Shown in pieces: positions 4,101 to 42,961 of a stretch of DNA of 51,451 nucleotides. The notes beneath the pieces were generated by a model. That model was not told where the DNA came from and searched no databases. It saw only the letters and a list, made by a program, of their open reading frames with translations. How positions within the stretch are numbered: position 1 is the stretch's first letter; every line of letters begins with the position of its first letter. The stretch comes from an uncultured Gammaproteobacteria bacterium (GTDB lineage: Bacteria; Patescibacteriota; Patescibacteriia; Patescibacteriales; GWC2-42-12), in the NCBI GenBank assembly GCA_964526325.1, contig CAZGKM010000009.1, positions 1 through 51,451 of the forward strand. Direction: 5' to 3'. The translations under genes were made by a program, and so were the position numbers.

Positions 4101-6161
4101 TCATTTCTTACTCCGCATCTTCGCCATTACCAATTTTATCTCGTCCCAGCTATAATCATCGCCTAACGCTTCGCGAATCGGCGTTAGCTTGTCCGCGCCT
4201 ATTTTTTTAACCGCGGCCATGATTTTTTTCTGCCGTTCGGGCTTTACCAGCTTGCTGATATTAACGCCCAATCCTTTTTCCGCCAAAAAACATAAATGCC
4301 CAACAATCGTGCCGACCGTAAGCTCGCGCGCTTCGGCGATTTTTTCCAGGCTTAACCCCTTATTCCATAATTCCAAAGTTTCCAATTGCGTTAATTTAGT
4401 GGACAGGCCGGAAGTTTTCTTTTTGTTTCTGGTTTCAACCTGCGCTTTTTCTATTTCACCCATATTTTTTACCAAGCAATTATCGCACTTAGCGCATTTT
4501 TTAGATTCAAAATCGCCGAAATAATCCAAAATATATTTTTGCCGGCAATCAAAATGATAAATATAATTTTCCATCAAATCCAATTTTTTATAAGCATGCT
4601 TTAATTTATATTTTAACGCCGCGAAATCAAGCTTAACTTCTTCGCCACCGACGCGTTTTAAAATTTTTAATTCCGTACCGCGAAATGGCGGCATATACTC
4701 CAGTAAATTCAAATCTTTTACTTTCTTAATTAAGCGCAGTAAAGTGTCTTTTTTAATTTGCAAAATATCGGCTATTTCTTCCATATTGGCGTACATGCCG
4801 GCCTCAAGTTCATGCCCATACTTATCAAACAATTTTTTTATCGTCTCGCGCTGTTTTTTATTATTAATTAAACTTTCCGTTTTTAACTTTCCGCTTTTAA
4901 CTTTTAAATACGCCTGCCCGACGCGATCATGCGAACGGGCAACGTAGCCTTCGCGTTCCAAAATTTTTATAGCCGTGCCTACGGCCATTTCCGGCGCCTT
5001 ATCGGAAAGCATCTCTGAAATTTCAGCATAAGTGATTAAAATCGTTTCCGTTTCGTAATTTTTTAAAATTTCATAAATTTCTAAAATCATTTCCGGCGGC
5101 GGATTATCGCCTTTTATAAAAAACTCTTGGAGATAGCGGTCGCGCGGGCTATAAAGCAAAAGGCAAAAACTCTGCTTGCCGTCGCGGCCGGCCCGGCCGG
5201 CTTCCTGGTAATATGCTTCAATCGTGCCCGGCATATCGTAATGGATGACGAACCTGATATCGCGCTTATCTATGCCTAAGCCGAAAGCGTTGGTGGCCAC
5301 GATAACTTTGGCTTTGCCTTTCATAAAATTTTCCTGCACCCATTTCCTGTCTTGCGTATCCATGCCGGCATGATAGCTCACGGCTTCAATATTATTGGCG
5401 AGTAGCGTCTGCAGAAGTTCGTCGGCTCGCGATCTTGTGCCAACGTAAATTATGCCCGTACCGTCCGGCACGCTTGAAATCGCGTCTAAAACAAACTGCG
5501 GCTTACGGCTATCTTGAGTATTAATTACCCCGAACTGTAAATTCGGCCGGGCAAACCCCGTAATCACTAAATTAGGATTAACCAAGCCGAGCTGTTTAAT
5601 AATATCATCTCTGACTTCCAGCGTGGCCGTAGCGGTTAAAGCCACGACCGCCGGACTGCCTAAAAATTCAATCGCGCTTTTTAATTTAATGTAGCTTGGC
5701 CTAAAATCATGCCCCCATTGGCTTATGCAGTGCGCTTCGTCAACCGCGAATAAACTTATTTTTATTTCTTTCAAAGCGGCCGTAAATTCCGCGCTGTAAA
5801 ATCTTTCCGGCGCGATATATAGCAGTTTATATTGCCCGGCTTTAACGGCTTCTACGCGGTTAACGGTTTCAGCCTGGCTGATAGAAGAATTAATAAAAGT
5901 AGCCGGTATGCCGATTTTTTGCAAACCGTCGACTTGATCTTTCATTAAAGCGATCAAGGGGGAAATTACTAAAGTTACTCCGTCCAATACCAGCGCCGGC
6001 AATTGATAACATAACGACTTGCCGCCGCCGGTCGGCATAATTACTACGGTTGATTGGCCGGCTAAAATATTATCGATTACTTTTTCCTGGCCGGGCCTAA
6101 ACGACGAAAAACCGTAATGTATTTTAAGTAACTCCAGAAGTTGTTGTTTTTGATTATCCAT
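4101..6161 (-). CDS. recQ: RecQ-family ATP-dependent DNA helicase with C-terminal HTH-like extension
   Basis: PTGGGKS Walker [16 protein letters not shown], zinc-binding C..C..C..C region ([18 protein letters not shown]), 686 aa. Confidence 0.92.
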
Positions 6162-6166
6162 ATATA

Positions 6167-6200
6167 GGCCCCCTTTAGCAAAGGCGGGTTAGGGGGATTT
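6167..6200 (+). repeat. Family C G5/C5 hairpin repeat, intergenic copy
   Basis: GGCCCCCTTTAGCAAAGGCGGGTTAGGGGGATTT; near-identical to 13359-13391 and 24190-24220. Confidence 0.75.
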
Positions 6201-7403: not shown

Positions 7404-9161
7404 TTACATAATTTGCGACCCGACCAGCTCTTCTGCGCCGGCCATGCCGTAACCGGAAATAATTTCCCTCAACCGAATTTCAGTTTCAGATACCGCTCTC
7501 GGGTTGTAAAATAAAGCTGTGCCTATGCCAACGGCTTGGGCGCCGGCGATTAGATATTCAGCCGCGCTATCGCCGCTATCTATCCCGGTTTGTCCGATTA
7601 AAGGTATGCCTAAATTCATCTCATAAAGTATTCTTAATTTCCTTAGCGCTAACGCCATGGCTCCGGGGCCGGAATAACCTCCGTAAGTATTGCCTAAAGC
7701 CGCCCGCCTGGTTTTTATGTCAATCTTTAAGCCGGGATGAGTATTGAAGCAGGACAAAGCGTCGGCGCCGCCTTCAATGGCCATTTGAGCGATTTTTTTC
7801 AAATATTCGCCGTCCGGTATGGGAGAAAGTTTTACGATGATAAAAGCTTCGGGCGCCGCAAGTTTAACCGCTCTGACCACGCTATAAGTAGCGGCCGGAA
7901 ATAAACCGAAAATTTTCTCCTTCTTTTTTTTGTTAGGGCAAGAGATATTTACTTCAAAAACTCTTACGCCGCGCTCATATAATATTTCCGCCAAATCAGC
8001 ATACTCATCCACGCTATTACCAAAAATATTAACGATTAAGGTTTTCTTAAAGCTCAGCCAGCGGGAGAGCTTGTCTTTTAAAAATTCTCCCAAACCCACA
8101 TTCTCAAGGCCAATGGCATTAAGCATGCCTCCGGGTATCTCTGCTATCCTCGGGCCTGCGTTACCGGTACGCGGCAATAAAGATAAACCTTTAGTGGTAA
8201 TAGCTCCGGCCTTGCTTATGTCTAAAGACCCGGCTTCAATCTTCTCTAAGTCCAGACAGCCGGCGCAAGTAATAATCGGACCGGATAAAACCAATTTTTT
8301 GCCTTCTTGCCCGGCTAGTATGGTTTTCATTTTTATCTTTTCAGCCGGTTTACGCTCTTTTTTTGGCACAATAACGCCAATATTTGACTGCATTAATTTT
8401 TCCCAATCAATTAATATGCCGGGTAAAAACGGACCATCTTCGCAAAGATGATAATGCCTGCCGCCCTTTTTTGGTATGACGCAGCCCTTGCAAGCGCCTT
8501 CACCGCAAGCCATAAGCGTTTCCATGCCGAGCTGGCAATTTATTTGGTGCCTTAAAGCCATTACGGCAACTTTTTCCAGCATGGCGTTAGGTCCGCAAGC
8601 GATGATAATGGAATTGGTTTTATATTCGCCTGTTTTTAATTCTTCCGCCAGCAAATCGGTTACTAGCCCATTTTTTTCAATAATGGTTTTTCGACGACAG
8701 CCGTAAAGTTTTAGCCATTTTTTATCTTCTTCGTTGCATTGATCCTTACTGCCATAAAGGCAAATCATTTCAGTGGATGAATCTTTCAGCTTTGAAGCTA
8801 GGAGCATTATCCCGGCAATACCGGCGCCTCCGGCTACCAATATTACTTTCTGAAAATAATTAGAGATTTTAATCGGCTTGCCTAACGGTCCTTTAGCGGA
8901 AATTTTATCGCCCGGTTTCCGGCTTGAATAATACTCGGTATTTTCCCCCTTGACCAAAATTCTAATAACGAAAAAATTGGAGTATTGGATAAATACTGAA
9001 AACGGCCGCCACCAAATTTTACTGGCGCAAAATGATTCCAGCATGACGAATTGGCCGGGCTTTGCTTCAAGCGGTCTTTCCGTTCTTAACGTAAGATAAA
9101 AAACGCCGGCTACCCGATCACCTGTACAGCTTATTACTGTTGCCATAAAAATTTTCTTCAT
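7404..9161 (-). CDS. pyrD: Fused dihydroorotate dehydrogenase class 1B: PyrK-like electron-transfer domain (FAD/NAD, 2Fe-2S) N-terminal, PyrD catalytic domain C-terminal
   Basis: RPFSV, LVAGGAGIAG, MACGEGACKGCV...HLCEDGP (2Fe-2S), then GNAGPRIAEIPGGMLNAIGLENVG, EVNISCPN, GGYSGPG, QTGIDSG..AGAQAVGIGTA. SD aggaggggg. Confidence 0.88.
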   Translation of the reverse strand: MKKIFMATVISCTGDRVAGVFYLTLRTERPLEAKPGQFVMLESFCASKIWWRPFSVFIQYSNFFVIRILVKGENTEYYSSRKPGDKISAKGPLGKPIKISNYFQKVILVAGGAGIAGIMLLASKLKDSSTEMICLYGSKDQCNEEDKKWLKLYGCRRKTIIEKNGLVTDLLAEELKTGEYKTNSIIIACGPNAMLEKVAVMALRHQINCQLGMETLMACGEGACKGCVIPKKGGRHYHLCEDGPFLPGILIDWEKLMQSNIGVIVPKKERKPAEKIKMKTILAGQEGKKLVLSGPIITCAGCLDLEKIEAGSLDISKAGAITTKGLSLLPRTGNAGPRIAEIPGGMLNAIGLENVGLGEFLKDKLSRWLSFKKTLIVNIFGNSVDEYADLAEILYERGVRVFEVNISCPNKKKKEKIFGLFPAATYSVVRAVKLAAPEAFIIVKLSPIPDGEYLKKIAQMAIEGGADALSCFNTHPGLKIDIKTRRAALGNTYGGYSGPGAMALALRKLRILYEMNLGIPLIGQTGIDSGDSAAEYLIAGAQAVGIGTALFYNPRAVSETEIRLREIISGYGMAGAEELVGSQIM

Positions 9162-13106: not shown

Positions 13107-14816
13107 TTATATCAAATTCTTCGCCATATAACTACCCTGTAATTTATAGCCTAATTTCCGATAATATCCTCTTACGCCCACGCCGGCGATCACGACCATT
13201 TTTTTATAACCTTTAAGCCGCGCGATTTTTTCCGCCTCGGCCATTAGCATTTTACCCAAACCGGCATGCTGAACTTTTTTCGCCCGCGTTGAGTTTGCCG
13301 AAGCGCCAACAGAAACAAGCTCGCCGTAAACATGAAGCTCCCGAATTAATGCTGTTTTGCCCCCTTTAGCAAAGGGGGACAGGGGGAATTTCATGTTTTG
13401 CTTCACTAATCTTAACCGGCAAAATCCATATAAAATTTTTCCATCCTTAGATTCATAACTTAAGAAATATTCTTCACCAAATGAAGCTTTATATTTTATA
13501 ATTTTTAACTTTATACTTTTAACTTTAAACTTTTGATCTCCGGCTTCCCGGCATCTAATGCATTTACAGGCCACGCCGCGGTCTTTCATTACTTGCCTTA
13601 AATTAGTTATTAAATTACCGGCCATAATCGATTCGCCAGGAATATCGCGGATCAACCTGATAATACGCACATACTGCGGCACTATTTTTTTGCACTCTAC
13701 GATTAAATTCTGTAAAACTTTATCGGAATATGGCTTATACTTTCCGGCGCGCCACCATTTATATAATAAGCTGCCGCGCGTTACCACGGTCGGATAAAAT
13801 TTTAACTGGTCGGGTTGAAACCGCTGGTCGAAAAATAATTTTTTAAACATGGTTAAATCTTTTTTCGCCGTGGCGCCATAGAGACCGGGCATAATATGAT
13901 AAGTCACTTTAAAGCCGAAATTTTTTAAAAGTTCGGTGGCGCCGACGATTTCCGCCACTCCATGTCCGCGCTTATTTAATTTTAAAATTTTATCATCAAC
14001 CGCCTGCACGCCGAGTTCTACTCGCGTCGCGCCCAGCTCGCGCATTTCCAGTAATTCTTTATCATTAATATAATCCGGACGCGTCTCAAGCGTTATGCCG
14101 ATAATTTTATATCTGGCGCTTTCATTTTTTTTCTGTTCAGATAACAATTGTTGTTTCAATTTTTGCTTGTCCTCCGAAACTTTAGCGGAGGAGGAAATTT
14201 TTTTGTGATTTGGGATTTTTTTTCTAAAATCATTCGCCGCCTTAAAGCACCGCGTTATATACCAATACTTATAATTTTCCGGCAATACCGACCAAGTGCC
14301 GCCAATAACAATCAATTCGATCTTCGTCGGCTCATGCCCGTTAGCTTCTAAAGCGCGCAAGCGCAACTCTACCTGTTTATACGGATCATAACCGCAGCGA
14401 ATTGCGCGCATAACCGCCGGCTCGTTAGACAGATAGCTTTGCGGCACGCCGGATTCGCTAGGGCAATAAGCGCACCGGCCGGGGCAGGGATAGGACTTGG
14501 TTAAAACCGCTACTGACGCGATGCCGGATAAAGTTCTGACCGAACGCTTGCGCAAAATTTTTTCCAATTCAGCTGAACTCCGCATCATGCCGGTTATTAA
14601 ACGCTTTTTATATTCGCTTAATATTTCCGAATTCAATAAAATACTGACTCCGTACTTTTTCGCCAGCTTTCTTTTAATCGCCATCAATTCGGCGCGCGAT
14701 TTTATTTTGTCTTTTAAGAGTTCATTAATGGCATCAATCCTCTTTTGTTTTTCCTTGATTGTCATTTCTTGGCGTGTTATTATTAAAACATGCAAATTTA
14801 ACCAAAATCTATTCAT
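13107..14816 (-). CDS. elp3: Elp3-like radical-SAM / GNAT acetyltransferase (tRNA U34 modification family)
   Basis: CPGRCAYCP (Cx3Cx2C) and C-terminal GNAT motif QHAGLGKMLMAEAE. Alternative start Met18 at 14765. Confidence 0.82.
   Translation of the reverse strand: MNRFWLNLHVLIITRQEMTIKEKQKRIDAINELLKDKIKSRAELMAIKRKLAKKYGVSILLNSEILSEYKKRLITGMMRSSAELEKILRKRSVRTLSGIASVAVLTKSYPCPGRCAYCPSESGVPQSYLSNEPAVMRAIRCGYDPYKQVELRLRALEANGHEPTKIELIVIGGTWSVLPENYKYWYITRCFKAANDFRKKIPNHKKISSSAKVSEDKQKLKQQLLSEQKKNESARYKIIGITLETRPDYINDKELLEMRELGATRVELGVQAVDDKILKLNKRGHGVAEIVGATELLKNFGFKVTYHIMPGLYGATAKKDLTMFKKLFFDQRFQPDQLKFYPTVVTRGSLLYKWWRAGKYKPYSDKVLQNLIVECKKIVPQYVRIIRLIRDIPGESIMAGNLITNLRQVMKDRGVACKCIRCREAGDQKFKVKSIKLKIIKYKASFGEEYFLSYESKDGKILYGFCRLRLVKQNMKFPLSPFAKGGKTALIRELHVYGELVSVGASANSTRAKKVQHAGLGKMLMAEAEKIARLKGYKKMVVIAGVGVRGYYRKLGYKLQGSYMAKNLI
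13359..13391 (+). repeat. Family C G5/C5 hairpin repeat inserted in frame in elp3
   Basis: GCCCCCTTTAGCAAAGGGGGACAGGGGGAATTT encodes FPLSPFAKGGK on the minus strand. Confidence 0.75.
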
Positions 14817-14890
14817 CCCGTTAAATATTTATTATGGTTGCCATTTATTAAAATGTCAAATCAAAATAATTGTTTTACGGGCGAAAATAT

Positions 14891-16051
14891 ATGAAAAAAA
14901 TAAAATTTAACGGTGTAAAAAAAACAATACTAACGGCCTGTTTGGCCATCTTGCTGTTGCCTTTAGCGGCTTCAGCTTACAGTATTAAAAAAGGCGATTC
15001 GGTTTATGTTTCAAAAGACGAAGTGGTCGAAGGCAATCTTTATGCCGTTGGCGCCAGCTTAACCATTGAAGGCAAGGTCACGGGCGACGTTATCTGCGCC
15101 GGGCAATCTATCAACATTAACGGCGATGTGGCCGGCGACGTTATCTGCGCCGGGCAATCTATCAACATTAACGGCAAGATCGGCGGCAATCTGCGAGTAG
15201 CCGGAAACTCCATTAATTTTAACGGCCAAGCGGCGCGAAACGGCATAATTATAGGCGCGACTATCGTAACCGCGGCTAGCTCAACTATCGGCTGGGACTT
15301 ATTGATTTTAGGCAATGTTTTTGAATTAAGAGGCGACGTTGGCCGCGACTTATACGGCGGAGCGGGAAAAGTCAACGTAGCCGGACAAATTGGAAAAGAT
15401 ATTGATCTTAATTTTGGTTCGCAAAACAATTATGCTAATCCCTTAACAATCGCCGGTACGGCTAAGGTTAACGGTCAAGTAAAATATAAATCGGACAAAA
15501 ACGCGGCCATTGATTCTAACGCAGTTATAAACGGCGAAACAATCCATAATTTTCCAACCGCGGCAGCCAAAAAATCAGATTTGGCCGATTTAGGCTGGTG
15601 GTGGGGAAAATTAATTTCCATATTTTCCGCGTGGGTTTTAGGTTTGGTTCTGATTAGTTTCTGGCGCGAGCAGATTATTAAAATTACCGATTTAATGCTG
15701 ATTAAAGCCGGGCCGAGCTTTGGCTGGGGAATTTTAGCCCTGCTATTAACTCCGCTTATTGCAATTATTTTATTAATTACCATTATCGGCATTCCTCTGT
15801 CCCTTATTTTAATTACACTGTGGTTAATCGCATTGTACGTAAGCAAAATTTTAGTCGGCATCTTAATCGGCCGCAGTGTATTAAATAACTACTGGCCCAA
15901 GAAAAAAGACTCTTTGATTTTAGCCATGATTATCGGTATCGCAATCGCGTATTTAATTTTCGCTCTGCCTTTAATCGGCTGGCTAATAGCTCTTCTGGCC
16001 GTACTCTATGGGCTAGGCGGAATTTTCATGTCATTAAAAAAACAATCTTAA
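14891..16051 (+). CDS. Membrane-anchored bactofilin-like (polymer-forming beta-helix repeat) protein
   Basis: Signal-like N-terminus, repeats GDVICAGQSININGxxxG, C-terminal multi-TM block. Start taken at MKKIKFNG (14891). Confidence 0.7.
   Translation: MKKIKFNGVKKTILTACLAILLLPLAASAYSIKKGDSVYVSKDEVVEGNLYAVGASLTIEGKVTGDVICAGQSININGDVAGDVICAGQSININGKIGGNLRVAGNSINFNGQAARNGIIIGATIVTAASSTIGWDLLILGNVFELRGDVGRDLYGGAGKVNVAGQIGKDIDLNFGSQNNYANPLTIAGTAKVNGQVKYKSDKNAAIDSNAVINGETIHNFPTAAAKKSDLADLGWWWGKLISIFSAWVLGLVLISFWREQIIKITDLMLIKAGPSFGWGILALLLTPLIAIILLITIIGIPLSLILITLWLIALYVSKILVGILIGRSVLNNYWPKKKDSLILAMIIGIAIAYLIFALPLIGWLIALLAVLYGLGGIFMSLKKQS
15083..15175 (+). repeat. Perfect 42-nt direct repeat (period 51 nt) inside the bactofilin-like CDS
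   Basis: ggcgacgttatctgcgccgggcaatctatcaacattaacggc occurs at 15083-15124 and 15134-15175. Confidence 0.95.
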
Positions 16052-20050: not shown

Positions 20051-20123
20051 GCATTTATTCTATATTTATTTTACTCCTCTGGCAAGGGGGTAAGTTTAGT
20101 TACCAGCGAGCATTTTCATTTTA

Positions 20124-20367: not shown

Positions 20368-20434
20368 AGAGATTGCTTCGCTGCGCTCGCAATGACAATA
20401 CAAATTCTGGATTCTCGCTTTCGCAGAAATGACA
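20368..20434 (-). repeat. Two tandem solo arms of family A/A2 repeats
   Basis: Minus strand reads TTGTCATTTCTGCGAAAGCGAGAATCCAG followed by TTGTCATTGCGAGCGCAGCGAAGCAATCTCT. Confidence 0.65.
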
Positions 20435-21759: not shown

Positions 21760-21857
21760 ATGTTTCTGATTAAAATTAATAATTAAAAACTCATAGTTAG
21801 TATTAACTTCGCCAGAATTCACTCGCTCTATTTTTATAAAAATATTTCATACTGTTA

Positions 21858-21961
21858 TTGTAATTGCGAGGAGCGCCAGCGACGAAGCAATCTCACGAAC
21901 TATTAACTTAACTAATTGTCCGTTAGATTGCTTCGCTCCTTTCAGTCGCTCGCAATGACAT
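21858..21961. mobile_element. Family A palindromic MITE/REP-like element (~105 nt)
   Basis: TTGTAATTGCGAGGAGCGCCAGCGACGAAGCAATCTCACG ... AGATTGCTTCGCTCC...GCTCGCAATGACA. Confidence 0.8.
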
Positions 21962-23343: not shown

Positions 23344-24432
23344 TTATGTCAACTCCTGATTCGCATCCGCTTTTAACTTCTGCCAAGGCGTAAATTTTTT
23401 CCTTTTAGCGTTAAAGTATCCGGCCGCGGCAATCATAGCAGCGTTATCCGTGCAATACTTAAAGTCGGGAATTAATAATTTCGCGCCGGTCAATTTTTCT
23501 CTAACCGCGCTTTCCAGCCGGCTGCGCAATTCTTTATTGGCCGCCACGCCGCCGGACAGCATAATATTCTGGCAGCCATATTTTATGGCCGCTTTAACGG
23601 TTTTATGGACCAGCACTTCAGCCACGGCTAGCTGAAATTCATAAGCATATTCAGAAATTTTCTTTTTCCAATTTTTATCTCTTTGCACTCCATATAATAA
23701 CGCGGTCTTAAGTCCGGAAAAGGAAAAATTGAAATCACCGGAATTTATCATTGGCCGAGGCAGAGTAATTTTTAACTTTTCACTTTTAACTTTTAACTTT
23801 GCCGCCTCGGAGGCAATTGCCGGTCCGCCGGGGTAGCCTAAACCTAAAAGTTGGGCCGCTTTATCAAAAGCTTCTCCGGCCGCATCGTCACGCGTCTGGC
23901 CTAAAACTTTATATTTACCGTGTCCGCTCATCAGTATCAGCATGGTATGCCCGCCGGAAACGGTTAAAATAAGCGCTGGAAATTTTATTTTATTTTTGAC
24001 ATTTGTCATTTGACATTTGTCATTGCTAATTGGCTCCAGCCAATTAGCGTAGATATGCCCTTCAATGTGATTAACCGCCACAACAGGAATGCGCCAGGCA
24101 TAAGCTAAAGTCTTAGCCGTTTCCACTCCAACCAGTAAAGAAGTTATAAGGCCAGGCCCGACCGTAACCGCAATCGCATCGAGCTTATTGGCCCCTCTTG
24201 CAAAGGAGGGATGGGGGGTTAAACCCGCTTTCTCTATCGCTTCATTAACCACCGGCAAAATATTTAAAACATGCTCTCGCGCCGCTACCTCCGGCACTAC
24301 GCCGCCGTATTTTTTATGTATCTCGATTTGCGACGAAACAATATTTGACAATACCTTAACTTTTCCGCCGTTGCCTTTAACTACCGAAACGGCAGTTTCA
24401 TCGCAAGATGTTTCTACTCCTAATATAATCAT
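23344..24432 (-). CDS. tsaD: tRNA N6-adenosine threonylcarbamoyltransferase
   Basis: ILGVETSCDET, GPGL, NHIEGH, VSGGHT, DDAAGEAFDK, LPRPM..FSFSGLKT, CTDNAAMIA. Confidence 0.93.
   Translation of the reverse strand: MIILGVETSCDETAVSVVKGNGGKVKVLSNIVSSQIEIHKKYGGVVPEVAAREHVLNILPVVNEAIEKAGLTPHPSFARGANKLDAIAVTVGPGLITSLLVGVETAKTLAYAWRIPVVAVNHIEGHIYANWLEPISNDKCQMTNVKNKIKFPALILTVSGGHTMLILMSGHGKYKVLGQTRDDAAGEAFDKAAQLLGLGYPGGPAIASEAAKLKVKSEKLKITLPRPMINSGDFNFSFSGLKTALLYGVQRDKNWKKKISEYAYEFQLAVAEVLVHKTVKAAIKYGCQNIMLSGGVAANKELRSRLESAVREKLTGAKLLIPDFKYCTDNAAMIAAAGYFNAKRKKFTPWQKLKADANQELT
24190..24220 (+). repeat. Family C G5/C5 hairpin repeat inserted in frame in tsaD
   Basis: GGCCCCTCTTGCAAAGGAGGGATGGGGGGTT encodes TPHPSFARGA on the minus strand. 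Confidence 0.7.
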
Positions 24433-30309: not shown

Positions 30310-30420
30310 TTGTCATTGCGAGCCCCGTACTCGTGGCGAAGCAATCTCCGGTAAAACCCACGCCTTTACCGCTTAATTAGAGATTGCTTCGTCGCTTAAT
30401 TACATACCCCTCGCAATGAC
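30310..30420. mobile_element. Family A palindromic MITE/REP-like element
   Basis: TTGTCATTGCGAGCCCCGTACTCGTGGCGAAGCAATCTCC ... AGAGATTGCTTCGTCGC ... CCCTCGCAATGAC. Confidence 0.8.
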
Positions 30421-33981: not shown

Positions 33982-34130
33982 TTGTCATTGCGAGGAGCGA
34001 CTGAGCGACGAAGCAATCTCACGGACAATTTAAAAAATATAAACGTCATTTTTACTAACAAACTATACTATCAATAAATAGTTCGCGAGATTACCACGTC
34101 GCCCCAGGCACGTGCCTCCTCGCAATGACA
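33982..34130. mobile_element. Family A palindromic element, long variant (~150 nt)
   Basis: TTGTCATTGCGAGGAGCGACTGAGCGACGAAGCAATCTCACGG ... CGCGAGATTACCACGTCGCC...CCTCCTCGCAATGACAG. Confidence 0.8.
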
Positions 34131-37125: not shown

Positions 37126-37344
37126 TAGCCCCTAGGAGAATCGAACTCCTATTACCAGGCCTGCCCCGCATCAAAATAATAATTTTCAGTACCGCTACGG
37201 GGAATCGAACCCCGGTTACCAGGATGAAAACCTGGTGTCCTAACCACTAGACGATAGCGGCATAATAATTCTAAACTACTGCAATAATAATTTTGGTGCG
37301 GGGATGAATAAAACCTGGTGTCCTAACCACTAGACGAAGGGGCC
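37126..37344 (-). tRNA. Interrupted tRNA-Glu-like gene: 5' half 37344-37314 and 3' half 37159-37126, separated by 154 nt that contain the tRNA-Glu above
   Basis: 5' half GGCCCCT-TC-GTCT-AGTGGTTA-GGAC-A-CCAGG. 3' half CCTGG-TAAT-AGGAG-TTCGATT-CTCCT-AGGGGCT-A. The acceptor stem (7 bp) and anticodon stem (5 bp) are fully complementary across the gap. Confidence 0.6.
37190..37261 (-). tRNA. tRNA-Glu (anticodon UUC), 72 nt, no encoded CCA
   Basis: GCCGCTA-TC-GTCT-AGTGGTTA-GGAC-A-CCAGG-TTTTCAT-CCTGG-TAAC-CGGGG-TTCGATT-CCCCG-TAGCGGT-A. Full cloverleaf with G1-U72 and A73. Confidence 0.9.
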
Positions 37345-42856: not shown

Positions 42857-42961
42857 TTGTCATTGCGAGCGACCGGAGGAAGCGAAGCAATCTCACGTAC
42901 TCGGAGTTTAACCAAAGATTGCTTCGTCGCCCCGCAGATGCTGGACTCCTCGCAATGACAA
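42857..42961. mobile_element. Family A palindromic MITE/REP-like element
   Basis: TTGTCATTGCGAGCGACCGGAGGAAGCGAAGCAATCTCACG ... AAGATTGCTTCGTCGCC ... CTCCTCGCAATGACAA. Confidence 0.85.

Follow-up and report, generated by a model that had tools for sequence, protein, structure and literature searches.

A Palindromic Repeat in tsaD, elp3, and the recQ Leader

The contig CAZGKM010000009.1 of assembly GCA_964526325.1 (51,451 nucleotides; hereafter the window, meaning the whole stretch of DNA analyzed) carries three copies of a short palindromic repeat. Two lie in frame within the housekeeping genes tsaD and elp3, and one lies between genes in the 5′ leader of a recQ-type helicase gene (table 1). 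Homologues of TsaD and Elp3 come from organisms named as Patescibacteria, Falkowbacteria, or Parcubacteria, and by comparison with homologue P0121 (552 aa) elp3 probably starts 17 codons 3′ of its first ATG. An earlier note on this DNA had described the three sites as copies of one module built on an 8-bp hairpin. The three sequences are indeed present, and the two copies within coding sequences (CDSs) share orientation and reading frame (PLSPFAKGG in elp3 and PHPSFARGA in tsaD), but the description applies in full to only some of them: the elp3 and recQ-leader copies are canonical, the tsaD copy is diverged or of a sister type, and the hairpin is perfect over 8 bp only in elp3. Conceptual translation of the elp3 copy gives K-F-P-L-S-P-F-A-K-G-G and that of the tsaD copy gives (L)T-P-H-P-S-F-A-R-G-A, corresponding to residues 72–81; both are predicted to be translated as part of their host proteins. 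The recQ-leader copy consists of a left outer arm and an inner hairpin with one mismatch. Relative to the full-length element described below, each window copy amounts to three-quarters, keeping the inner hairpin and a single outer arm.

Table 1. Copies of the palindromic repeat, their host genes, and other features of the window
Feature	Coordinates	Strand	Sequence or evidence	Setting or remark
recQ-leader copy	6168..6200	-	AAATCCCCC-TAA-CCCGCCTTT-GCT-AAAGGGGG, then CCTATAT + ATG	intergenic
elp3 copy	13359..13391	-	AAATTCCCCC-TGT-CCCCCTTT-GCT-AAAGGGGG	canonical, in frame
tsaD copy	24190..24222	-	TTAACCCCCC-AT-CCCTCCTTT-GCA-AGAGGGGCC	diverged or sister-type, in frame
tsaD (tRNA N6-adenosine threonylcarbamoyltransferase, 362 aa)	23344..24432	-	E=5e-80 to solved TsaD structures; homologues PF00814, named TsaD	host gene
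elp3 (radical-SAM/GNAT tRNA uridine-34 modification enzyme)	13107..14816	-	E=4e-119 to solved Elp3 structures; homologues named Elp3	host gene
recQ-type helicase gene	4101..6161	-	Pfam DEAD, Helicase_C, RecQ_Zn_bind, HTH_40	5′ leader holds the intergenic copy
Promoter-like site	6292-6265	-		upstream of recQ
(AAAGTTA)n array	4871-4910			in frame in recQ
(AAAGTTA)n array	13499-13534			in frame in elp3
(AAAGTTA)n array	23766-23800			in frame in tsaD
(TGTCAAA)x4 array	23995-24024		NDKCQMTNVKN	tsaD codons ~136-146
Second palindromic family	~20371-20396			intergenic, partial
Second palindromic family	21855-21960			intergenic
Second palindromic family	30312-30420			intergenic
Second palindromic family	33984-34129			intergenic
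Second palindromic family	42859-42960			intergenic
51-nt tandem repeat	15064-15189		2.5 copies, 82% matches	within bactofilin-like gene 14870-16051
tRNA gene	37190-37261	-	only Rfam match in the window

A repeat search grouped the three sites into one family (82% for the elp3 site and 73% for the tsaD site). The motif is far more common than composition predicts: allowing three or fewer mismatches, its 19-nt core CCCCCTTTAGCAAAGGGGG matches only the recQ-upstream and elp3 sites, and 0.02 matches are expected by chance. A hidden Markov model (HMM) of the family, built from 237 independent copies located outside the window, gave E-values of 1.6e-8 for the copy in elp3, 5.5e-4 for that upstream of recQ, and only 8.6 for that in tsaD, with no further copy in the window. 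A fourth, weaker copy that had been proposed at 20074–20094 was rejected as a family member, as it has no HMM match at E ≤ 10 and no convincing hairpin. The elp3 and recQ-leader copies thus qualify by HMM and the tsaD copy, not significant alone, by orthology. We infer its membership via relatives, because L081, L083, L322, L323, and L326 hold canonical copies at the same codon (HMM E ~1e-6 to 5e-11; L324 is weaker, E=0.024). The window tsaD copy (LTPHPSFARG) resembles a sister hairpin type, ACCCC..CCCTCTCCTTGGCAAGGAGAGGG (peptide LTPTLSLARRG), that is present at that site in L322. Folding energies of the copies relative to dinucleotide shuffles are unremarkable (z of -0.3 to -1.8), which is uninformative either way because shuffling still allows C-runs and G-runs to pair.

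Insertion Status of the TsaD and Elp3 Loops

The TsaD segment is an extra loop, as the earlier note had proposed, of ~8 residues relative to T. maritima TsaD, in which P73–A81 are missing, and it is also extra relative to the proteins of distant Patescibacteria. Both T. maritima and the distant Patescibacteria have a short canonical loop, KAGIKPEKLDAIGVT. The E. coli protein has this short loop as well. A scan of genome contigs with TsaD was used only for this ancestral short loop, few close relatives being among the matches listed. In the 120 closest homologues, this loop is 8 to 44 aa long. Close orthologues that are seemingly empty (NEAL-KGVKKIDAIAV) retain a K-G footprint, and their state could be derived from the filled one via a deletion between TTAAAG direct repeats. 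Structural mapping places the insert in a low-confidence coil (residues 69–85, between helix 48–68 and strand 86–93) of an AlphaFold model with a mean predicted local distance difference test (pLDDT) score of 78.6; the score is below 50 at residues 76–81.

The corresponding Elp3 loop, located between FCRLRL and IRELHVYG, is hypervariable and spans 6 to 50 residues among 120 homologues. Some 12 Patescibacteria orthologues have a near-empty loop, in keeping with insertion. Conversely, loops in the Dehalococcoides and archaeal Elp3 structures are similar in length to that of the window protein, with the Dehalococcoides protein only two residues shorter there. The segment is thus an insertion within the clade but not against all Elp3. 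The archaeal M. infernus Elp3 (PDB 6iad/6iaz) reads DPYKPFRKEIDDKT where residues 476–490 of the window Elp3 read FPLSPFAKGGKT, a likeness that may be coincidental or may reflect a separate palindrome insertion; coding palindromic repeats are known from Methanocaldococcus.

Many homologues have double inserts at the TsaD and Elp3 loops, and in some orthologues the same loops are occupied by other repeat types, namely an LSLARRG hairpin, an ..EMT palindrome, or heptamer arrays. In tsaD of Falkowbacteria CG10_43_10 (L008), another hairpin subtype, AGCTCCCCCTCCTTACTAAGGAGGGGGCT (peptide SSPSLLRRGLEGG), is present at the same loop.

Conservation of the DNA Motif among Relatives

DNA of relatives L081, L083, and L321–L327, all syntenic with the window, was compared. 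The repeat had been expected to be lineage-specific, but it is not confined to this genome: all three sites are common to relatives with proteins 70–83% identical, and the insertions are therefore old rather than recent. At the tsaD site, L081 and L083 have AAA TCC CCC TTA CCC CCT TTR TTA AAG GGG G, read as PPLLKG. The same motif is shifted by one base in L323 and L326, where it is read as PFxKGG in the frame used in the window. In L322, tsaD has two adjacent elements, the sister hairpin ACCCCAACCCTCTCCTTGGCAAGGAGAGGG followed by a canonical one. The elp3 site is filled in L322, L323, and L327, in two frames.

Between orthologues, identity of the element is 0.80 at tsaD (28 pairs) and 0.85 at elp3 (6 pairs), versus 0.55 and 0.50, respectively, at third positions of flanking, strongly conserved codons. 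Because frames differ between orthologues and because elements are 80–85% identical when third positions are only 50–55% identical, it is the DNA motif that is maintained, not the peptide. On these comparisons the peptide is very unlikely to be the object of selection, and plain neutral decay of an ancient insert is insufficient; something maintains these orthologous copies beside saturated synonymous sites. The inner stem type (C5 or C6) is uniform within genomes (3 of 3; window, L322, and L323) and differs between orthologues, a weak hint of recopying within genomes.

The recQ Leader Copy

A promoter-like site on the minus strand (table 1) would put the recQ copy within the 5′ untranslated region. 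An orthologous copy is located 5′ of recQ in L327 at 15660–15686, where it reads AAATTCCCCCTCACTTCCTTTGCTAAAGGGGGCAAGTGCAAT-ATG. The right arm, AAAGGGGG, lies 7–10 nt 5′ of the recQ ATG, and the G-run and its spacing are kept in both the window and L327. In both genomes the pairing C-arm has decayed. It is plausible that the G-run now doubles as a ribosome-binding site, that is, as a Shine-Dalgarno sequence. Across the window, a Shine-Dalgarno sequence is recognizable in only ~3 of 39 genes (starts 6302, 9161, and 36994) and most leaders are A/T-rich; initiation is therefore apparently largely independent of Shine-Dalgarno pairing. We also considered an intrinsic terminator and rejected it, since the recQ copy is between divergent genes and thus in a 5′ leader rather than at a 3′ end, and the other two copies are intragenic. 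Terminator-like calls were at chance level (1 found vs 0.9 expected).

A Repeat Family across Phyla and Phages

Beyond the clade, 46 complete copies define the full form as WAAT-C5-7-N1-4-C5-7TTT-N3-AAAG5-7-N1-4-G5-7-ATTW. The consensus for the family is WAAT-C5-6-N2-3-C5-6TTT-N3-AAAG5-6-N2-3-G5-6-ATTW. The core is 35–40 nt (mode 38), or ~44 nt with flanks, and the ends, WAAT and ATTW, are conserved. Short unpaired spacers set an outer stem off from an inner hairpin, with conserved stems and variable loops and spacers, and the fixed parts have no stop codon in any frame. A pattern with 21 fixed bases, CCCCCNNNCCCCCTTTNNNAAAGGGGG, was found in at least 120 metagenome stretches and 116 viral-contig stretches, on contigs of 31 to 70% GC. 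Flanks that the pattern does not force are conserved as well, namely AAAT on the 5′ side, GGGGGATTT, and, in many copies, N2-3-GGGGG(G)ATTT on the 3′ side.

Of 268 pattern matches, 150 (56%) are within stop-free open reading frames (ORFs) 150 or more codons long, with all six frames represented. Typical element peptides are PPxPPLxKGG, PPFxKGGxGGF, and PLWKRGAGG. Host proteins elsewhere include QueA, a polyprenyl synthase, the linker of an E2 acyltransferase, and a Mu-like phage portal. Exact look-up identified carriers in Chloroflexota/Dehalococcoidia, Nitrospirota/Thermodesulfovibrionales, and Thermodesulfobacteriota/Syntrophaceae. The family is thus in at least four bacterial phyla, including Patescibacteria, as well as in phage contigs.

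Presence and absence of the element distinguish closely related proteins. The Nitrospirota DUF1957 protein P0341 has SEPNPPSPPFCKGGMGGFSDGNFRFQC where P0346, 88% identical overall, has NEHNELQR. Likewise, the Mu-like portals P0372 (EIPPASPPPFEKGGMGGIYE) and P0375 (AAGTVTGDPVGPFVD), which are 87% identical, differ by presence versus absence or replacement. Polyprenyl synthase orthologues of L090 and L183 have a first element in common and differ in further ones, indicating successive insertions at one site. Contig-specific subfamilies and tandem arrays are present in L247, L233, L288, and L309. The last, a 6.2-kb IMG/VR contig that is phage-like (terminase, an anti-repressor-like gene, and DUF559), has 15 copies of the element. 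In L309 and L328 there are intergenic tandem arrays with a period of ~42 nt, and three tandem copies are directly 5′ of DUF559.

The family HMM had no match in 1.2 Mb of named non-Patescibacteria loci, and a BLAST search of annotated plasmids and phages with the 43-nt consensus gave only three marginal matches (Nostoc, Microviridae, and a Helicobacter prophage), so that the family is essentially absent from the annotated plasmid and phage collections of cultured organisms. Searches of Rfam 15 gave no family match: the window yielded one tRNA, and five full-palindrome loci yielded two spurious, sub-threshold microRNA matches. Our literature search found no description of this element or of its link to DUF559.

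Association with DUF559 Genes

Four small DUF559 genes (PF04480; Vsr-like PD-(D/E)XK) were found with jackhmmer in the element-bearing loci. All four have the element at the 5′ end of the ORF, an arrangement seen in 245 of the 6038 remaining ORFs (Fisher p=2.8e-6). Every DUF559 gene of this subfamily that was inspected has flanking copies, which in the home configuration lie at both ends of the gene. N-terminal extensions occur in 17 members of an independent set of 120 DUF559 homologues, and no fewer than 11 of the 17 are read-through of the element, as in ..PPLEKGGRGDLK-MLPYNK.. and LPPLEKGGRGDLK-MLPYNK. In L337, L347, and L349, an intact element directly follows the DUF559 stop codon. An element is also located 9–13 nt 5′ of the ATG in L337 and L347, and upstream of the gene in L349 there is only an outer-arm remnant. 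The layout of the unit is thus [(left arm)+hairpin+right arm]-9..13 nt-ATG..stop-0..7 nt-[left arm+hairpin]. In L337 (1850–2315), the DUF559 unit of ~450 bp sits in the short spacers of an operon, after a large unidentified ORF and before genes of the 4Fe-4S (Fer4_11) and NrfD types, an order reminiscent of psrABC. The arrangement is identical in 10 of 10 places shown, each from another metagenome sample.

More distant DUF559 genes (41–45% identity) are accompanied by different C/G-rich hairpins, CCCCTCC-N3-GGAGGGG and CTTCCCCTT..AAGGGGAAG, which suggests that nuclease and hairpin co-vary. DUF559 proteins that are ~70% identical occur in Planctomycetota, Brocadiales, Nitrospirota, Syntrophales, and Omnitrophota, indicating horizontal spread that parallels that of the element. 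The Vsr/DUF559 clade includes a homing endonuclease (PMC3424549). No transposase was enriched when the 6042 ORFs around copies were clustered, the clusters being of phage structural and ordinary housekeeping genes only, and a Pfam scan of 20 window ORFs (193–32677; ORFs from 32767 on were outside the scan) found none.

Proposed Origin and Alternative Explanations

We suggest that a DUF559-associated palindromic mobile element is probably the source of the three sites, which would be orphan copies of it (two canonical, one diverged), and that repeated recopying, conversion, or re-insertion at these sites by a nuclease-driven, homing-like process is the most likely reason that their DNA is maintained. 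More tentatively, and with somewhat less than even confidence, we propose that DUF559 and the palindrome together form an undescribed, promiscuous mobile element in which a nuclease gene bracketed by cognate hairpins sheds stop-free orphans of 33–45 nt that write loops into proteins. Long ago, copies would have entered a surface loop of TsaD, a loop in the acetyltransferase domain of Elp3, and the recQ leader. They would have survived because the element is free of stop codons in every frame, encodes a flexible peptide rich in Pro, Gly, and Lys, and landed in insertion-tolerant sites. DUF559, the putative mobilizing enzyme, would recognize and cut the hairpin or a cruciform, and repair from another copy would then insert, refresh, or stack elements at hot spots. 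Within genes, only frame-restoring copies would survive, their Pro/Gly/Lys peptide being tolerated at the protein surface as loops of 11–15 residues in essential and phage structural proteins. Such cut-and-repair would explain the conservation of stems across phyla, the variable spacers, the differences in frame, the tandem and nested copies, and the replacement-type alleles.

Several observations weigh against this proposal. Pairs of filled and empty sites are compared at the level of protein, and the portal pair looks more like exchange of a segment than like simple insertion. In the window, only one hairpin of three is perfect, and folding energy is unremarkable. In relatives, copies are nearly confined to tsaD loops 1 and 2, the elp3 loop, and the recQ leader, with a single other copy seen (L083 at 15543); this is unlike what is expected of an actively spreading selfish repeat and also fits a site-specific function. 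Searches with tblastn and jackhmmer detected neither a DUF559 gene nor a remnant of one in the 51-kb window and in loci of its Patescibacteria relatives totaling ~300 kb, and the link to the nuclease is therefore by analogy only for this lineage. Lastly, a DUF559 gene could carry or target hairpins, as terminators or landing pads, without mobilizing them.

That relatives carry copies at the same three or four sites and few at others is what would be expected of a functional cis-element, in which purifying selection keeps the palindrome as a protein-binding site (like an intragenic parS) or as an mRNA hairpin that tunes the translation or stability of tsaD, elp3, and recQ. A nucleotide motif conserved far better than neutral sites, stems that are constant beside variable loops and spacers, and a recQ G-run at Shine-Dalgarno distance in two genomes would fit as well. 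We nevertheless consider this explanation unlikely, since many close orthologues are without the motif and others have different repeat types at the same loop, the window copies in tsaD and recQ have damaged hairpins, and no Rfam family matches. Presence/absence polymorphism, tandem arrays, and insertions in unrelated and phage proteins of other phyla are, moreover, the behavior of mobile DNA. It is also improbable, in our view, that the copies are dead, that is, ancient one-off insertions now inactive, tolerated, and decaying neutrally, with likeness between orthologues due to shared ancestry. The copies are indeed orthologous and old, no nuclease or transposase is nearby, the window tsaD copy is visibly decayed, and the "empty" TsaD orthologues with their K-G footprint look like secondary deletions. 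But neutral decay predicts the identity of third positions (~0.50–0.55) rather than that of the elements, it does not account for motifs that are intact in differing frames, and the match of C5/C6 stem type within genomes and not between orthologues hints at recopying. Both explanations keep a small probability, chiefly because this clade has its copies at only a handful of shared sites and yielded no nuclease.

Selection on a protein-level motif is very improbable. All three host proteins act on nucleic acids, and DPYKPFRK occupies the corresponding position in M. infernus Elp3, so P-x-x-P-F-x-K-G-G could be an ancestral or convergent peptide such as a Lys/Gly loop that contacts nucleic acid. 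However, one copy is intergenic, C-runs and G-runs persist at synonymous positions, and outside the window all six frames of the element are translated, in unrelated proteins too; the idea is largely refuted by orthologues that read the same DNA in different frames as different peptides. The probability that the copies reflect chance, composition, or an assembly artefact is close to negligible. Although the window is not enriched in G5 or C5 runs (10 of each observed vs 11 and 22 expected, respectively), chance does not account for two core sites when 0.02 are expected or for HMM E-values down to 1e-8, and reading frames are preserved across the insert. An artefact is also contradicted by one identical insert-bearing host protein being on 49 contigs (NCBI, JGI, ENA, and Logan).

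Comparison with Known Repeats and Significance

The earlier note had likened the copies to Rickettsia palindromic elements (RPEs), a comparison that is apt in that both interrupt protein genes in frame and are found between genes as well. RPEs, palindromic selfish repeats located between genes and in frame in conserved genes, were reportedly described by Ogata and colleagues in 2000 and by Claverie and Ogata in 2003. They are palindromes of 100–150 bp restricted to Rickettsia, and we know of no enzyme associated with them. Like RPEs, the element is in frame in conserved or essential genes, falls in surface loops in a manner compatible with function, and has copies common to related species. 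Unlike RPEs, which are here set apart by description rather than by alignment of their sequences, it is 33–45 nt in size, has another sequence and a Patescibacteria host, spans at least four phyla as well as phages, and flanks DUF559 genes. We rejected membership in the RPEs on length (window copies ~33 nt, full copies ~44 nt) and on host taxon.

Cyanobacterial small dispersed repeats (SDR4–6) offer another comparison. Elhai and colleagues are said to have described in 2008 both these repeats, which are 21–27 nt, known only from the Nostocales, and have no reported associated gene, and the STRR heptamers. Compared by description, both they and the element are tiny hairpin repeats inserted in conserved sequence, including genes, can be nested or adjacent, and co-occur with heptamers; the element is larger. 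Miniature inverted-repeat transposable elements are defined by terminal inverted repeats that match a parent insertion sequence and by target-site duplication; here, the whole element is one palindrome, and no parent insertion sequence was found near copies.

Repetitive extragenic palindromic (REP) sequences and REPINs are imperfect palindromes presumably mobilized by a RAYT (TnpA-REP, HUH Y1) transposase that is itself flanked by repeats (PMC3116915, PMC3733652), and REPs have a conserved GTAG or CGTC tetranucleotide at one end (PMC3733652). The element shares with them an imperfect palindrome of 20–45 nt, a single enzyme gene flanked by copies amid many orphans, and conserved stems with variable loops. 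In contrast, its head is WAAT rather than GTAG or CGTC (46 full copies), its associated gene encodes a DUF559 Vsr-like PD-(D/E)XK endonuclease rather than an HUH tyrosine transposase, and its sequence is conserved across phyla whereas REP families are species-specific. REPs are also extragenic, whereas the element is inside ORFs in 56% of family matches and at two of the three window sites.

A nuclease fold of the DUF559 clade in a small, selfish, and horizontally spreading gene is likewise a feature of free-standing and intron-borne Vsr-like homing endonucleases, among them I-Bth0305I (EDxHD), which is listed with DUF559 (PMC3424549). Copying by cleavage and repair, as in these systems, would explain upkeep of the motif, conversion, and site hot spots. 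Unlike them, the element has no intron or intein context and its repeat is dispersed as orphans that lack the gene; cleavage of the palindrome by DUF559 is putative. In kind, the element belongs with small non-autonomous palindromic repeats, and what is new is a candidate Vsr-like nuclease partner and the spread across phyla.

If the link holds, DUF559, a large family of unassigned function, would gain a role in mobilizing or homing on its cognate palindrome, and there would be a second enzyme-plus-palindrome system beside REP/RAYT with another catalytic fold. The element accounts for the variation of TsaD and Elp3 loops by up to ~40 residues among close Patescibacteria and is a general source of in-frame loops in essential and phage proteins across phyla. 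There are also practical consequences: the elements inflate and fragment metagenome assemblies, disturb alignments used for the phylogeny of streamlined genomes, and cause spurious N-terminal extensions (PPLxKGGxGDL) in gene calls.

Other Repeats in the Window and Relatives

In-frame heptamer arrays, (AAAGTTA)n on the coding strand, are present in exactly the three genes associated with hairpins (table 1), where they encode K-[LF]-K-V-K-S-x-K-L-K; the probability of this coincidence is ~7e-5 if three of ~45 genes carry each repeat. With up to three mismatches, an 18-mer of the heptamer has 10 matches versus 0.5 expected, and 8 of the 10 are within recQ, elp3, and tsaD. The site of the tsaD array is filled by the hairpin element instead in L083, L324, and L325. 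The (TGTCAAA)x4 array of tsaD forms a second extra loop relative to T. maritima TsaD, in a region in which AlphaFold pLDDT is below 50 (residues 124–145). In elp3 of L322, (TCGCAAT)x4 at 7405–7435 (peptide SRNSQFAIRN) adjoins the hairpin element, and peptides of the RNSQLATRN type, sometimes in tandem, are at the Elp3 loop in 39 of 120 homologues.

A second palindromic family in the window is entirely intergenic and has the form GTCATTGCGAGGAGCG..CGAAGCAATCTC..loop..GAGATTGCTTCG..CGCTCGCAATGAC, with a size of ~100–145 nt. A related palindrome, GTCATTCCGACGAGCG...CGGTCGAAATGAC (peptide VIPTSVCEEESL..FLPSVEMTN), is in frame in the elp3 loop of L081 and in TsaD homologue P0035. In RecQ, ~190 residues (~330–520) separate Helicase_C, which ends at 328, from the zinc-binding domain, which starts at 520 and covers profile positions 21–66 only; this region may be another inserted or repeat-rich segment. 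The 51-nt tandem repeat in the bactofilin-like gene is probably an ordinary protein-domain repeat.

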